39,355 nt of DNA from Escherichia phage JB01. The stretch lies in sequence record MW074885; one strand, given 5' to 3'. Positions 1,293 to 12,925 of this stretch are shown here, in pieces. Within the stretch, counting starts at the first letter, position 1; each line of letters starts with the position of its first letter. The position numbers and the translations under genes are program-made. Below the pieces are notes generated by a model. The model did not search any database and had not been told where the DNA came from. It saw nothing but the letters and a program-made list of their open reading frames with translations.

Positions 1293-1991
1293 ATGGCTAA
1301 GAAGATTTTCACCTCTGCGCTGGGTACCGCTGAACCTTACGCTTACCTCTCCAAGCCGGACTACGGTAACGAGGAGCGTGGCTTTGGGAACCCTCGTGGT
1401 GTCTACAAAGTTGACCTGACTATTCCCAACAAAGACCAGCGCTGCCAGCGTATGGTCGATGAAATCGTGAAGTGTCACGAAGAGGCTTATGCTGCTGCCG
1501 TTGAGGAATACGAAGCGAATCCACCTGCTGTAGCTCGTGGTAAGAAACCGCTGAAACCGTATGAAGGAGACATGCCGTTCTTCGATAACGGTGACGGTAC
1601 GACTACCTTTAAGTTCAAATGTTACGCGTCTTTCCAAGACAAGAATACCAAAGAGACCAAGCACATCAATCTGGTTGTGGTTGACTCCAAAGGTAAGAAG
1701 ATTGAAGACGTTCCGATTATCGGTGGTGGCTCTAAGCTGAAAGTCAAATACTCTCTGGTTCCGTACAAGTGGAACACTGCTGTAGGTGCGAGCGTTAAGC
1801 TGCAACTGGAATCCGTAATGCTGGTCGAACTGGCTACCTTTGGTGGCGGTGAAGACGATTGGGCCGATGAAGTCGAAGAGAACGGCTATGTTGCCTCTGG
1901 TTCTGCCAAAGCGAGCAAACCACGCGACGAAGAAAGCTGGGACGAAGACGACGAAGGCTCTTACGAAGAAGACGAAGACGGAGACTTCTAA
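1293..1991 (+). CDS. 2.5: gp2.5 single-stranded DNA-binding protein
   Basis: 232 aa with acidic C-terminal tail DEDDEGSYEEDEDGDF; strong SD aaggag upstream. Confidence 0.95.
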   Translation: MAKKIFTSALGTAEPYAYLSKPDYGNEERGFGNPRGVYKVDLTIPNKDQRCQRMVDEIVKCHEEAYAAAVEEYEANPPAVARGKKPLKPYEGDMPFFDNGDGTTTFKFKCYASFQDKNTKETKHINLVVVDSKGKKIEDVPIIGGGSKLKVKYSLVPYKWNTAVGASVKLQLESVMLVELATFGGGEDDWADEVEENGYVASGSAKASKPRDEESWDEDDEGSYEEDEDGDF

Positions 1992-2447
1992 GTGGCTGGC
2001 GCATACGCTGCGCGTGGTATCCGAAAGGTCGGGACATTCCGTTCCGGCCTAGAAGATAAGGTCTCTAAGCAGCTAGAGGGTAAGGGCATTAAGTTCGACT
2101 ATGAACTGTGGAAAATCCCTTACGTTGTCCCTGCGAGCAACCATGTGTATACTCCAGACTTCCTGCTGCCTAACGGAATCTTTATTGAAACCAAAGGTTT
2201 ATGGGAGAGTGACGACCGAAAGAAACACTTATTGATTCGCAAACAGTTTCCTGAACTTGACATCCGTCTGGTGTTCTCAAGCTCGCGCACCAAGCTGTAC
2301 AAAGGGTCTCCGACCAGTTACGGTGAATGGTGTGAGAAGCACGGTATTCTGTTTGCTGACAAATTAATTCCTGTAGAATGGCTCAAAGAACCCAAAAAGG
2401 AGGTGCCATTTGACAAGCTGAAACAATCGAAGGGAGGAAAGAAATAA
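1992..2447 (+). CDS. 3: gp3 endonuclease I (Holliday junction resolvase)
   Basis: GTG start immediately after the 2.5 stop; 151 aa resembling T7 endonuclease I; no gene 2.8 between 2.5 and 3. Confidence 0.92.
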   Translation: MAGAYAARGIRKVGTFRSGLEDKVSKQLEGKGIKFDYELWKIPYVVPASNHVYTPDFLLPNGIFIETKGLWESDDRKKHLLIRKQFPELDIRLVFSSSRTKLYKGSPTSYGEWCEKHGILFADKLIPVEWLKEPKKEVPFDKLKQSKGGKK

Positions 2448-2902
2448 TGGCTCGTGTACAGTTTAAACAACGTGAATCTACTGACGCAATCTTTGTTCAC
2501 TGCTCAGCTACCAAGCCAAGTCAGAATGTTGGTGTCCGTGAGATTCGCCAGTGGCATAAAGAGCAAGGTTGGCTTGATGTCGGGTATCACTTTATCATCA
2601 AGCGTGATGGTACTGTAGAGGAAGGCCGAGATGAGATGGCTGTAGGCTCCCACGCTAAGGGCTACAATCACAACTCTATTGGTGTCTGCCTTGTAGGTGG
2701 TATCGACGATAAAGGTAAGTTCGACGCTAACTTTACGCCAGCCCAAATGCAATCCCTCCGCTCACTGCTTGTCACACTGCTGGCTAAGTATGAAGGCGCT
2801 GTACTTCGCGCGCATCACGATGTGGCACCTAAGGCTTGCCCATCGTTCGACCTTAAGCGTTGGTGGGAGAAGAACGAACTGGTCACTTCTGACCGTGGAT
2901 AA
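2447..2902 (+). CDS. 3.5: gp3.5 lysozyme (N-acetylmuramoyl-L-alanine amidase, RNAP inhibitor)
   Basis: 151 aa MARVQFKQRESTDAIFVHCSATKP..., as T7 lysozyme. Confidence 0.95.
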   Translation: MARVQFKQRESTDAIFVHCSATKPSQNVGVREIRQWHKEQGWLDVGYHFIIKRDGTVEEGRDEMAVGSHAKGYNHNSIGVCLVGGIDDKGKFDANFTPAQMQSLRSLLVTLLAKYEGAVLRAHHDVAPKACPSFDLKRWWEKNELVTSDRG

Positions 2903-2903
2903 T

Positions 2904-2926
2904 TAATTGAACTCACTAAAGGGAGA
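2904..2926 (+). promoter_or_regulatory. phage RNAP promoter phi3.8
   Basis: taattgaactcactaaagggaga followed by the ccacaacggtttccc leader hairpin. Confidence 0.8.
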
Positions 2927-2973
2927 CCACAACGGTTTCCCTTTGTTCGCATTGTTGATTAAGGAATAACCAT

Positions 2974-10593: not shown

Positions 10594-10994
10594 TGTCTGA
10601 GTTCACATGTGTGGAAGCCAAAAGCCGCTTCCGTGCAATCCGGTGGACTGTAGAGCACCTTGGGTTGCCTAAGGGATTCGAAGGACACTTTGTTGGTTAC
10701 AGCCTCTACGTTGACGAAGTTATTGACATGTCTGGTTGTCGTGAAGAGTACATTCTGGACTCTACCGGAAAACATGTAGCGTACTTCGCGTGGTGCGTAA
10801 GCTGTGACATTCACCACAAAGGTGACATTCTGGATGTAACGTCCGTTGTCATTAATCCTGAGGCAGACTCTAAGGGCTTACAGCGATTCCTAGCGAAACG
10901 CTTTAAGTACCTTGCAGAACTCCACGATTGCGATTGGGTGTCCCGCTGTAAACATGAAGGCGAGACAATGCGTGTATACTTTAAGGAGGTATAA
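10593..10994 (+). CDS. 7: gp7 virion/host-range protein
   Basis: 133 aa as T7 gp7. Confidence 0.88.
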   Translation: MSEFTCVEAKSRFRAIRWTVEHLGLPKGFEGHFVGYSLYVDEVIDMSGCREEYILDSTGKHVAYFAWCVSCDIHHKGDILDVTSVVINPEADSKGLQRFLAKRFKYLAELHDCDWVSRCKHEGETMRVYFKEV

Positions 10995-10997
10995 GTT

Positions 10998-11300
10998 ATG
11001 GGTAAGAAAATTAAGAAGGCCGTGAAGAAAGTCACTAAGTCCGTTAAGAAAGTCGTTAAGGAAGTGACTCGTCCGGTTAAACAGATTGCTGGTGGTCTGG
11101 CTGGTGGTGCTGGTGAAGCACAGGTGGTGGAAGTACCACAAGCTGCCGCAACTCCTGCTGCACAGATTGTTGACGTACCTGAGAAAGAGGTTTCCACTGA
11201 GGACGAAGCACAGACCGAAAGCGGACGTAAGAAAGCTCGTGCTGGCGGTAAGAAGTCCTTGAGTGTGGCTCGTAGCTCCGGTGGCGGCATCAACATTTAA
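10998..11300 (+). CDS. 7.3: gp7.3 tail assembly/ejection protein
   Basis: 100 aa, Lys-rich N-terminus MGKKIKKAVKKVTKSVKK; gene 7.7 absent before gene 8. Confidence 0.88.
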   Translation: MGKKIKKAVKKVTKSVKKVVKEVTRPVKQIAGGLAGGAGEAQVVEVPQAAATPAAQIVDVPEKEVSTEDEAQTESGRKKARAGGKKSLSVARSSGGGINI

Positions 11301-11314
11301 ACAGGAGGTGACAC

Positions 11315-12925
11315 ATGGCTGAGAAGCGTACAGGTCTAGCCGAGGAAGGCGCAAAGTCGGTCTATGAGCGATTAAAGAACGACCGCGCTCCTTATGAGAC
11401 TCGTGCTCAAAACTGCGCTCAGTACACCATTCCGTCCCTCTTCCCTAAGGACTCCGATAACTCATCCACAGACTACACGACTCCGTGGCAAGCTGTGGGT
11501 GCTCGCGGTCTCAATAACTTGGCCTCTAAGCTCATGCTGGCTCTCTTCCCGATGCAAACGTGGATGAAACTGACCATCTCTGAGTATGAGGCTAAACAGT
11601 TACTGAATGACCCCGATGGACTCGCTAAGGTCGATGAGGGCCTCTCGATGGTAGAGCGTATCATCATGAACTACATTGAGTCTAACAGTTACCGAGTGAC
11701 TCTCTTTGAGGCTCTCAAGCAGTTAGTCGTAGCGGGTAACGTCCTGCTGTACCTACCGGAACCAGAAGGGTCAAACTATAATCCCATGAAGCTGTATCGA
11801 TTGTCTTCTTATGTGGTCCAACGAGACGCATTCGGCAACGTTCTGCAAATGGTGACTCGTGACCAGATAGCTTTTGGCGCTCTCCCTGAGGACATCCGTA
11901 AGGCTGTAGAAGGTCAAGGTGGTGAGAAGAAAGCCGATGAGACCATCGACGTGTACACTCACATCTATCTGGATGAGGACTCAGGCGAATACCTCCGGTA
12001 CGAAGAGGTCGAGGGTATGGAAGTTCAAGGCTCCGATGGGTCTTACCCCAAAGAGGCTTGCCCGTACATCCCGATTCGAATGGTTCGTCTGGATGGTGAA
12101 TCCTACGGTCGTTCGTACATTGAGGAATACTTAGGTGACTTACGGTCCCTTGAGAATCTCCAAGAGGCTATCGTCAAGATGTCCATGATTAGCTCTAAGG
12201 TTATCGGCTTAGTGAATCCTGCTGGCATCACCCAGCCACGCCGACTGACCAAAGCTCAGACTGGTGACTTCGTTACTGGTCGTCCAGAAGACATCTCGTT
12301 CCTCCAACTGGAGAAGCAAGCAGACTTTACTGTAGCTAAAGCCGTAAGTGACGCTATCGAGGCTCGCCTTTCGTTTGCCTTTATGTTGAACTCTGCGGTT
12401 CAGCGCACAGGTGAGCGTGTGACCGCCGAAGAGATTCGGTACGTTGCGTCAGAACTAGAAGATACTTTGGGTGGTGTCTACTCCATCCTTTCTCAAGAAT
12501 TACAATTGCCTCTGGTACGAGTGCTCTTGAAGCAACTACAAGCCACGCAACAGATTCCTGAGTTACCTAAGGAAGCCGTAGAGCCAACTATTAGCACAGG
12601 TCTGGAAGCAATCGGTCGTGGTCAAGACCTTGATAAGCTGGAGCGTTGTGTCGCTGCGTGGGCTGCACTGGCTCCTATGCGTGATGACCCTGACATCAAC
12701 CTTGCGATGATTAAGCTGCGAATTGCTAACGCTATCGGTATTGACACTTCTGGTATTCTACTCACCGAAGAACAGAAGCAACAGAAGATGGCCCAACAGT
12801 CTATGCAAATGGGTATGGATAATGGTGCTGCTGCGCTGGCTCAAGGTATGGCTGCACAAGCTACAGCTTCACCTGAGGCTATGGCTGCTGCCGCTGATTC
12901 CGTAGGTTTACAGCCGGGCATTTAA
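11315..12925 (+). CDS. 8: gp8 portal (head-tail connector) protein
   Basis: 536 aa, same length as the T7 portal. Confidence 0.97.
   Translation: MAEKRTGLAEEGAKSVYERLKNDRAPYETRAQNCAQYTIPSLFPKDSDNSSTDYTTPWQAVGARGLNNLASKLMLALFPMQTWMKLTISEYEAKQLLNDPDGLAKVDEGLSMVERIIMNYIESNSYRVTLFEALKQLVVAGNVLLYLPEPEGSNYNPMKLYRLSSYVVQRDAFGNVLQMVTRDQIAFGALPEDIRKAVEGQGGEKKADETIDVYTHIYLDEDSGEYLRYEEVEGMEVQGSDGSYPKEACPYIPIRMVRLDGESYGRSYIEEYLGDLRSLENLQEAIVKMSMISSKVIGLVNPAGITQPRRLTKAQTGDFVTGRPEDISFLQLEKQADFTVAKAVSDAIEARLSFAFMLNSAVQRTGERVTAEEIRYVASELEDTLGGVYSILSQELQLPLVRVLLKQLQATQQIPELPKEAVEPTISTGLEAIGRGQDLDKLERCVAAWAALAPMRDDPDINLAMIKLRIANAIGIDTSGILLTEEQKQQKMAQQSMQMGMDNGAAALAQGMAAQATASPEAMAAAADSVGLQPGI

Follow-up and report, generated by a model that had tools for sequence, protein, structure and literature searches.

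Unoccupied endonuclease slots in Escherichia phage JB01 and their place among T7-like phages

Escherichia phage JB01 (sequence record MW074885) lacks, at four junctions of its genome, the genes 2.8, 3.8, 5.3 and 7.7 that phage T7 carries there. Analysis of the window, by which the whole stretch of 39,355 nucleotides (nt) is meant, and comparison with T7 and its relatives make it very probable that JB01 bears the unoccupied allele at these four slots and the occupied allele at two others, after genes 4 and 19, and that the presence or absence of such endonuclease cassettes is driven by homing.

The JB01 record is a complete, circularly permuted genome of Teseptimavirus, the T7 group. By megablast, its first 12 kb matched about 900 Studiervirinae records, with Escherichia phages N30 and C5 at the top at about 94%, while the top matches of the late region showed 92-95% identity. 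The genome is collinear with that of T7 (NC_001604; blastn), and the terminal repeat is present as one collapsed copy at about 31597-31766. Core-gene identity of JB01 is 92.6% to T7, 94.4% to both N30 and UFV01, and 91.6% to C5. A tblastn search of JB01 with the 56 T7 proteins gave positional counterparts in T7 order for 50 of them, which supports membership in Teseptimavirus, and left 0.5, 0.6A, 1.4, 1.5, 3.8 and 5.3 without a match. The gene products (gp) 2.8, 7.7 and 4.1 likewise had no positional counterpart in JB01, gp2.8 and gp7.7 matching only paralogous HNH genes. Seven phage promoters of JB01 differ from the T7 consensus at no more than one position.

The four junctions and the HNH genes of JB01

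In the T7 RefSeq record, genes 2.8 (9857-10276), 3.8 (11225-11590), 5.3 (16483-16839) and 7.7 (19848-20240) occupy the junctions in question, as an earlier note on this DNA had stated. The list of open reading frames (ORFs) and a reading of the sequence also showed that the note had correctly placed the abutting genes 2.5 and 3, the promoter phi3.8 before gene 4, and the two short spacers ahead of genes 5.5 and 8 (Table 1). The only stretches of T7 left unmatched by JB01 in this region (blastn) were 9861-10277, 11214-11585, 16469-16833 and 19844-20239, which correspond to those four genes, and the collinear alignment picks up at once on either side of all four gaps. The absence of the four genes is thus borne out by whole-genome alignment to T7.

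Residual fragments were looked for as well, and none was found. In the tblastn search with all T7 proteins (E ≤ 10), gp3.8 and gp5.3 gave no match better than E ~0.8 anywhere in JB01, and remnants of gp2.8 and gp7.7 were not found at their T7 junctions, the matches of these two proteins lying only at 4771-5199 and 30598-31041. Direct reading of the JB01 junctions revealed no remnants or scars of the four genes; the gaps measure 3, 56, 19 and 14 nt, and therefore hold no space for gene fragments. Decayed pseudogenes at the four junctions are excluded by the tblastn search together with the reading of the junctions.

The two regions matched by gp2.8 and gp7.7 are the HNH genes that the earlier note had seen at two other sites, after genes 4 and 19, and Pfam, PHROG and motif evidence agree on both. 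The first gene overlaps the start of gene 4.3 (5183), and its product is 97% identical to its orthologues in N30 and C5 and 44% identical to T7 gp2.8 and gp7.7. The second, whose counterpart in phage 13a is named gene 19.4, encodes a protein 93-97% identical to its orthologues in HZ2R8, IME390, N30, Yanou, JeanTinguely and 3A_8767. Both proteins match PHROG HNH endonuclease families and possess intact AHR and CDNPxCxNPxHL motifs, AHR preceding CDNPLCCNPAHL in the first protein and CDNPSCVNPEHL in the second. The catalytic histidine and the metal-binding Asn/His motif are present in each, and H42 is almost invariant across an alignment of 40 cassette sequences.

The JB01 proteins are paralogues of T7 gp2.8 and gp7.7 (38-45% identity), with the same HNH_3 domain and C-terminal helix-turn-helix, and their genes, like the T7 cassettes, are intergenic insertions that run from start codon to start codon. 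JB01 differs from T7 in that its cassettes lie in other slots while the T7 slots are empty, and in that homologues of gp3.8 and gp5.3 were not found in it. The description of the missing T7 genes as HNH-like holds only in part. It is correct for gp2.8, gp3.8 and gp7.7, which score 26.1, 56.0 and 49.8 bits against HNH_3 (PF13392; gathering threshold 24.8 bits), but gp5.3 matched no HNH model in Pfam and is instead a PD-(D/E)XK protein with a nuclease fold (PDDEXK_5, PF11645; 42.1 bits, cutoff 26.1 bits).

At every slot the cassettes sit start codon to start codon and capture a ribosome-binding site (RBS). The GTG that follows the gene 2.5 stop codon starts gene 2.8 in T7 and gene 3 in JB01. The RBS of the JB01 7.3/8 spacer, ACAGGAGGTGACAC, recurs in C5 and HZ2R8 (with T or G, not A, as the first spacer base), where it is followed by the ATG of 7.7, and the 3' end of 7.7, CATGGAGGCATATCTA, gives gene 8 a new RBS. 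Similarly, the JB01 HNH gene after gene 4 is preceded by the phi4.3 promoter and an RBS at 4742-4770, and the end of the gene, AAATGGAGGAAACATC, is the RBS for gene 4.3. It follows from start-to-start insertion with RBS capture that the empty junctions are seamless and fully functional.

Table 1. Positions in the window of the JB01 genes, promoters and slots under discussion; fractions refer to the set of 18 genomes described in the next section
Feature	Position	Strand	Remarks
gene 2.5 (single-stranded DNA-binding protein)	1293..1991	+	TAA at 1989-1991; 96.6% over 232 amino acids to T7 gp2.5 (tblastn)
gene 3 (endonuclease I)	1992..2447	+	GTG start abuts gene 2.5 stop; empty 2.5/3 slot (T7: 2.8)
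gene 3.5 (lysozyme/amidase)	2447..2902	+	98.7% identity to T7 gp3.5
promoter phi3.8 TAATTGAACTCACTAAAGGGAGA	2904..2926	+	identical to T7 phi3.8; directly before gene 4; empty 3.5/4 slot (T7: 3.8)
gene 4 (primase/helicase)	2974..4677	+	ATG start at 2974
phi4.3-type promoter TAATACGACTCACTAAAGGAGAT	4742..4764	+	drives the HNH gene in JB01; read directly and compared with empty alleles
free-standing HNH_3 + helix-turn-helix endonuclease gene, 4/4.3 slot	4771..5199	+	HNH_3 46.3 bits; HTH_23
gene 5 (DNA polymerase)	6184..8298	+	99% identity to T7 gp5; no intron, 0 extra nt
empty 5/5.5 slot TTCTATAGGAGAAATTATT	8299..8317	+	19 nt; T7 has 5.3 there; identical spacer in 13/18 genomes
gene 5.5 (H-NS-binding protein), divergent allele	8318..8614	+	51% to T7 gp5.5; phrog_1452
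gene 7.3	10998..11300	+	ORF list, tblastn
empty 7.3/8 slot ACAGGAGGTGACAC	11301..11314	+	14 nt; ribosome-binding site serving gene 8 directly
gene 8 (portal)	11315..12925	+	begins 14 nt after gene 7.3 stop
free-standing HNH_3 + HTH_23 endonuclease gene, 19/19.5 slot	30598..31041	+	HNH_3 35.2 bits, HTH_23 26.5 bits; phrog_6254, 8e-60
phage promoter TAATTCGACTCACTATAGGGAGA	31093..31115	+	accompanies the HNH-type 19/19.5 allele

Slot occupancy among the relatives of T7

Every gap between neighbouring core genes was measured in 18 genomes: JB01, 16 complete genomes (T7, N30, 13a, phiA1122, C5, 64795_ec1, HZ2R8, 3A_8767, EG1, IME390, Vi06, JeanTinguely, JacobBurckhardt, UFV01, Yanou and ESh1), and T3 as outgroup. 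The 2.5/3 junction is empty, at 0-3 nt, in 16 of the 18, the exceptions being T7 (400 nt) and Vi06 (a 76-nt spacer). The TAA-GTG arrangement of this junction is present in 15 of the 18, UFV01 and T3 having ATG at that position, and gene 2.8 was found in T7 only. At 3.5/4, about 12 of 18 genomes are empty (25-65 nt) and T7, phiA1122, 13a and 64795_ec1 are occupied; intermediate lengths occur in JeanTinguely (142 nt) and in T3 (171 nt, including the short gene 3.7), and the succession of phi3.8 and gene 4 is common to T3 and JB01. The 5/5.5 slot is empty (19-20 nt) in 14/18, with T7, 64795_ec1, EG1 and T3 occupied, and the 7.3/8 slot (13-14 nt) in 13/18, with T7, 13a, phiA1122, C5 and HZ2R8 occupied.

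Database-wide junction queries gave a similar picture. Of 561 records that match the 2.5/3 junction, most, among them those of Klebsiella phages, K11 and T7M, run through it without interruption; those in which it is interrupted belong chiefly to T7 and laboratory strains derived from it, alongside a few unexamined ones such as Sal_R1S. Most relatives other than T7 are uninterrupted at 7.3/8, and the alignments of Klebsiella phages cross the 5/5.5 junction without a break. The empty state is therefore the majority state and, because the distant Klebsiella phages share it (K11 and T7M at 2.5/3 only), it is probably ancestral at 2.5/3 and 5/5.5. T7 is the heavily colonised outlier, and since the empty state is common and probably ancestral, JB01 need not have lost anything. 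T7 being atypically rich in endonucleases within its genus, 'missing T7 genes' in new isolates should not be taken as deletions.

Across the 18 genomes, 11 variable endonuclease slots were recognised: 1/1.1, 1.2/1.3, 1.3/1.4, within or after 1.7, 2.5/3, 3/3.5, 3.5/4, 4/4.3, 5/5.5, 7.3/8 and 19/19.5. Twelve had been scored at first, but T3 gene 1.05, at 1/1.2, does not encode an endonuclease, which leaves one real occupant there. HNH_3 is matched by 34 of the 40 cassette ORFs and PDDEXK_5 by two. Each genome carries between none and four cassettes, JB01 having two; at least one is present in 17/18, and EG1 is without any at the slots surveyed. Additional endonuclease loci suggested by tblastn at the 3' end of the ligase gene proved spurious, having arisen from an over-extended JeanTinguely ORF used as query.

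The cassette proteins group by slot, not by genome. Identity is 93-97% within 4/4.3 and among most occupants of 19/19.5 (68-69% for those of 13a and Vi06), and 35-46% between slots. Such orthology by site implies that each cassette lineage is tied to its own site, as site-specific homing would have it, and would fit spread better than repeated de novo insertion.

The gap matrix and the junction alignments reveal presence/absence polymorphism at fixed sites in collinear genomes, and occupancy is patchy relative to the core-gene tree. The suggestion that endonuclease cassettes have been independently gained and lost on a conserved backbone accordingly survives as far as gain and loss are concerned, given patchy occupancy at 11 slots in 18 collinear genomes. 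The word 'independent' does not, as events cannot be reliably counted where genomes recombine and where homing or recombination could also produce patchiness by spreading a handful of insertions. Parsimony counts of gain and loss (1-7 changes per slot on a neighbour-joining backbone) were not relied on for a related reason, the backbone being near star-like and recombinant.

The 5/5.5 slot has received three unrelated genes: a PD-(D/E)XK gene (T7 16483-16839, and 64795_ec1), an HNH gene (T3 15168-15473), and a gene for a 64-amino-acid protein of EG1 (16661-16855) that belongs to phrog_18049, a family of unknown function. Beside the empty 5.3 slot of JB01 an allelic replacement is seen, in that the product of gene 5.5 is as distant from its T7 counterpart as given in Table 1 while the products of its neighbours, genes 5 and 5.7, show 99-100% identity; alleles of gene 5.5 of 98 and 99 amino acids circulate in the relatives. 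Inserts also occur within essential late genes, namely in gene 19 (terminase) of Vi06 (837 nt with an ORF, 35297-35839) and in gene 16 of JacobBurckhardt (504 nt, about 35229-35743), both absent from JB01, and intron or insert ORFs were also seen in genes 5 and 19 of some of the 18 genomes.

Among the individual relatives, N30 (NC_048078; Teseptimavirus N30) has the configuration of JB01 at every surveyed slot, including the four empty ones, and shares with it the HNH gene after gene 4 (97% amino acid identity), another after gene 19 (95%), and an extra ORF after gene 17. The two genomes differ in being about 94% identical at the nucleotide level, and in the 5' boundary of the 4/4.3 cassette, since in JB01 the promoter is still preceded by a gene 4.2-like tail. 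C5 shares the 4/4.3 cassette with N30 and JB01, but its 7.3/8 slot is occupied by 7.7 and it is without 19.4. Neither 7.7 nor 19.4 is present in UFV01, which carries an HNH gene behind gene 1. It has been described before that near-identical T7-like phages gain and lose homing endonucleases, among them a gp3.8 homologue and gp5.3 (PMC4925675). Both the phenomenon and, in N30, the exact configuration are thus already on public record, and the state of JB01 is the usual one among T7 relatives. In practical terms, the empty junctions are safe insertion sites, and the 3.8, 5.3 and 7.7 loci have already been used in T7 engineering (PMC12153263).

Linked flank substitutions and competing explanations

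Diagnostic columns, in which all carriers of a cassette differ from all non-carriers, were searched for among 29,708 ungapped core columns. For the 7.7 partition nine such columns were found, all within nt 21-246 of gene 8 and all at third codon positions; the corresponding bases of JB01 gene 8, at 11335-11560, hold the nine empty-type alleles. The 3.8 partition gave five columns, all in nt 1-172 of gene 4. For 5.3, two of five columns fall within the final 13 nt of gene 5 (-13 and -7; JB01 8286 and 8292, both empty-type), and for the 4/4.3 HNH gene, six of 14 fall within the final 265 nt of gene 4. The 5' end of JB01 gene 4 (about 2973-3126) is empty-type for 3.8, and its 3' end (about 4413-4632) bears the alleles linked to the downstream HNH gene. 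At all four T7 slots, JB01 possesses empty-type alleles. In equal-size random subsets, the mean number of columns was 0.22 for 7.7 and 0.67 for 3.8, and the observed count was reached in 0.3% and 2.7% of trials, respectively. Linked polymorphism confined to the flank is therefore found for 7.7 and 3.8, and in part for 5.3 and 4/4.3.

Such one-sided and mostly silent linked flanks are the pattern that would be expected from target-site immunity or from polar co-conversion by a free-standing homing endonuclease, and the gene 8 stretch at 11335-11560 would then be the target region of gp7.7 or a co-conversion tract. Each cassette is a single small ORF that takes over the promoter or RBS of the downstream core gene, for which its own 3' end supplies a replacement RBS. 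In the proposed mechanism, the endonuclease would, during mixed infection, cut the cassette-free allele within the adjacent core gene, and repair from the cassette-bearing genome would copy the cassette and a short piece of adjoining sequence (homing with co-conversion). Silent substitutions within this piece would protect the cassette-bearing allele, and presence or absence would be left free to vary among otherwise collinear phages. The homing step itself is suggested by analogy and by the signature of the linked flanks.

It is possible, and is put forward tentatively, that the linked silent substitutions map the recognition regions of gp7.7 (gene 8, 11335-11560, densest at nt 21-27 and 99-126) and of gp3.8 (gene 4, about 2973-3126). 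If this is so, JB01, with cleavable alleles at the four T7 slots, would be a natural recipient for homing of the T7 endonucleases, and T7 would conversely be a recipient for the 4/4.3 and 19/19.5 cassettes of JB01; the linked flank alleles would predict which phage converts which in mixed infections or cocktails. A bolder version of this reading, which follows a preprint on GAPS4 (10.1101/2025.09.07.674715), would hold the slot paralogues to be interchangeable anti-defence factors, with selection keeping the number of cassettes and not their position. The mapping of linked silent substitutions, with its prediction of where gp7.7 and gp3.8 act, is the only mildly new product of this analysis.

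Several observations weigh against a purely homing-driven account. The 19/19.5 slot has no flank-diagnostic columns in the 18 genomes, and the two alleles of this region (JB01 30561-31205), one T7-type of about 258 nt and the other of about 645 nt with the HNH gene and its own promoter, resemble segment replacement rather than point insertion. The linked flanks could also reflect mere co-inheritance of a recombined segment, as opposed to target-site immunity. A literature search for cleavage, homing or target-site data on T7 gp2.8, gp3.8, gp5.3 and gp7.7 returned only dispensability data and the GAPS4 preprint. Furthermore, the nuclease-independent anti-GAPS4 benefit reported in that preprint means that a description of the cassettes as purely selfish may be incomplete.

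This last point leads to the explanation that survives best beside homing, namely that the cassettes are retained for their benefit to the phage, in anti-defence or in competition between phages, and that the JB01 repertoire reflects a different host-defence pressure, its two HNH and helix-turn-helix paralogues standing in for the T7 set. We consider it rather unlikely. T7 lacking 2.8, 3.8 and 7.7 does lose to the wild type only in the presence of GAPS4, and catalytically dead gp3.8 still blocks GAPS4, yet in the same preprint the triple mutant gave unaltered plaque counts (10.1101/2025.09.07.674715). Likewise, the retention of at least one endonuclease cassette in 17/18 genomes speaks for a benefit, as does the HNH_3 and helix-turn-helix architecture that the JB01 proteins share with gp2.8 and gp7.7, but EG1 manages without such a cassette at the surveyed slots, and occupancy is highly labile even between the closest genomes sampled. 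A benefit is, moreover, compatible with homing and so is no true alternative to it. Should the anti-GAPS4 role hold, the endonuclease repertoire could affect host range on defence-carrying strains.

Secondary loss, in which the JB01 lineage once had 2.8, 3.8, 5.3 and 7.7 and deleted them precisely as dispensable, for instance when a smaller genome was favoured, is improbable. The empty junction is in the majority at all four slots, and the distant Klebsiella phages are empty at 2.5/3 and 5/5.5 (K11 and T7M at 2.5/3), so that gain by T7 is simpler there. Gene 2.8 in particular is confined to T7 in the 18-genome set, and in the wider survey to T7 and the few unexamined others such as Sal_R1S. 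Loss would be feasible: T7 tolerates deletion of gp3.8, gp5.3 and gp7.7 (PMC12153263), a cassette can easily be lost precisely when its phage recombines with an empty allele, and in the laboratory-evolved T7 records MZ375272 and MZ375288 the span from gene 5 to 5.9 is 1230 instead of 1568 nt, indicating that 5.3 was lost. The JB01 junctions, however, show no trace of such an event in the form of remnants or scars.

Finally, an artefact of assembly or annotation, by which the genes would be present but collapsed or lost, has practically no chance of being correct and the absence is real, for although the circularly permuted record with its single collapsed terminal-repeat copy did pass through an assembler, the junctions are near base-for-base the same in 11-15 genomes sequenced independently in different laboratories, form functional stop, RBS and start arrangements, and have flanks with empty-type linked alleles.

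Other differences from T7 and comparison with known systems

JB01 departs from T7 at several further positions. Between gene 17 (tail fibre) and gene 17.5 (holin), a 127-amino-acid ORF at 27377-27760 (plus strand) has no T7 counterpart and matched nothing in Pfam or PHROG; N30, C5 and UFV01 also have this slot filled. It is accompanied by a C-terminal half of gp17 that is not of T7 type, T7 gp17 aligning over amino acids 1-288 only, and its product may be a tail-fibre accessory or chaperone. Upstream of gene 0.3 lies a 94-amino-acid ORF (32546-32830, plus strand; phrog_9817, unknown function), and other small ORFs (phrog_25811 and phrog_2385, at 33257-33815) take the place of T7 0.5 and 0.6.

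T7 1.4 and 1.5 appear to lack a counterpart in JB01, and the spacer from the ligase gene to gene 1.6 is, at 65 nt, the shortest of the 18; this spot coincides with the arbitrary ends of the record (39318-39355 and 1-27). The frame of gene 4.7 is open for 178 amino acids (5629-6165, plus strand), and homology to T7 gp4.7 (135 amino acids, 99%) begins at residue 44 (5758). The upstream extension, which overlaps gene 4.5, is probably not translated.

The closest parallels to the T7-group cassettes are the Seg and Mob families of T4-like phages, for example MobE (PMC2790892, PMC2988022), and gene 5.3 of T3, to which 'collaborative homing' in T7-like phages is ascribed in a work cited in PMC10055350. 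In those systems activity, targets and conversion have been shown experimentally, whereas the T7-group cassettes are known by their comparative signature. What they have in common with the T7-group cassettes is single-ORF nuclease genes in intergenic positions beside essential genes, presence or absence between close relatives, and the polar co-conversion of flanking markers that is proposed for the T7 group.

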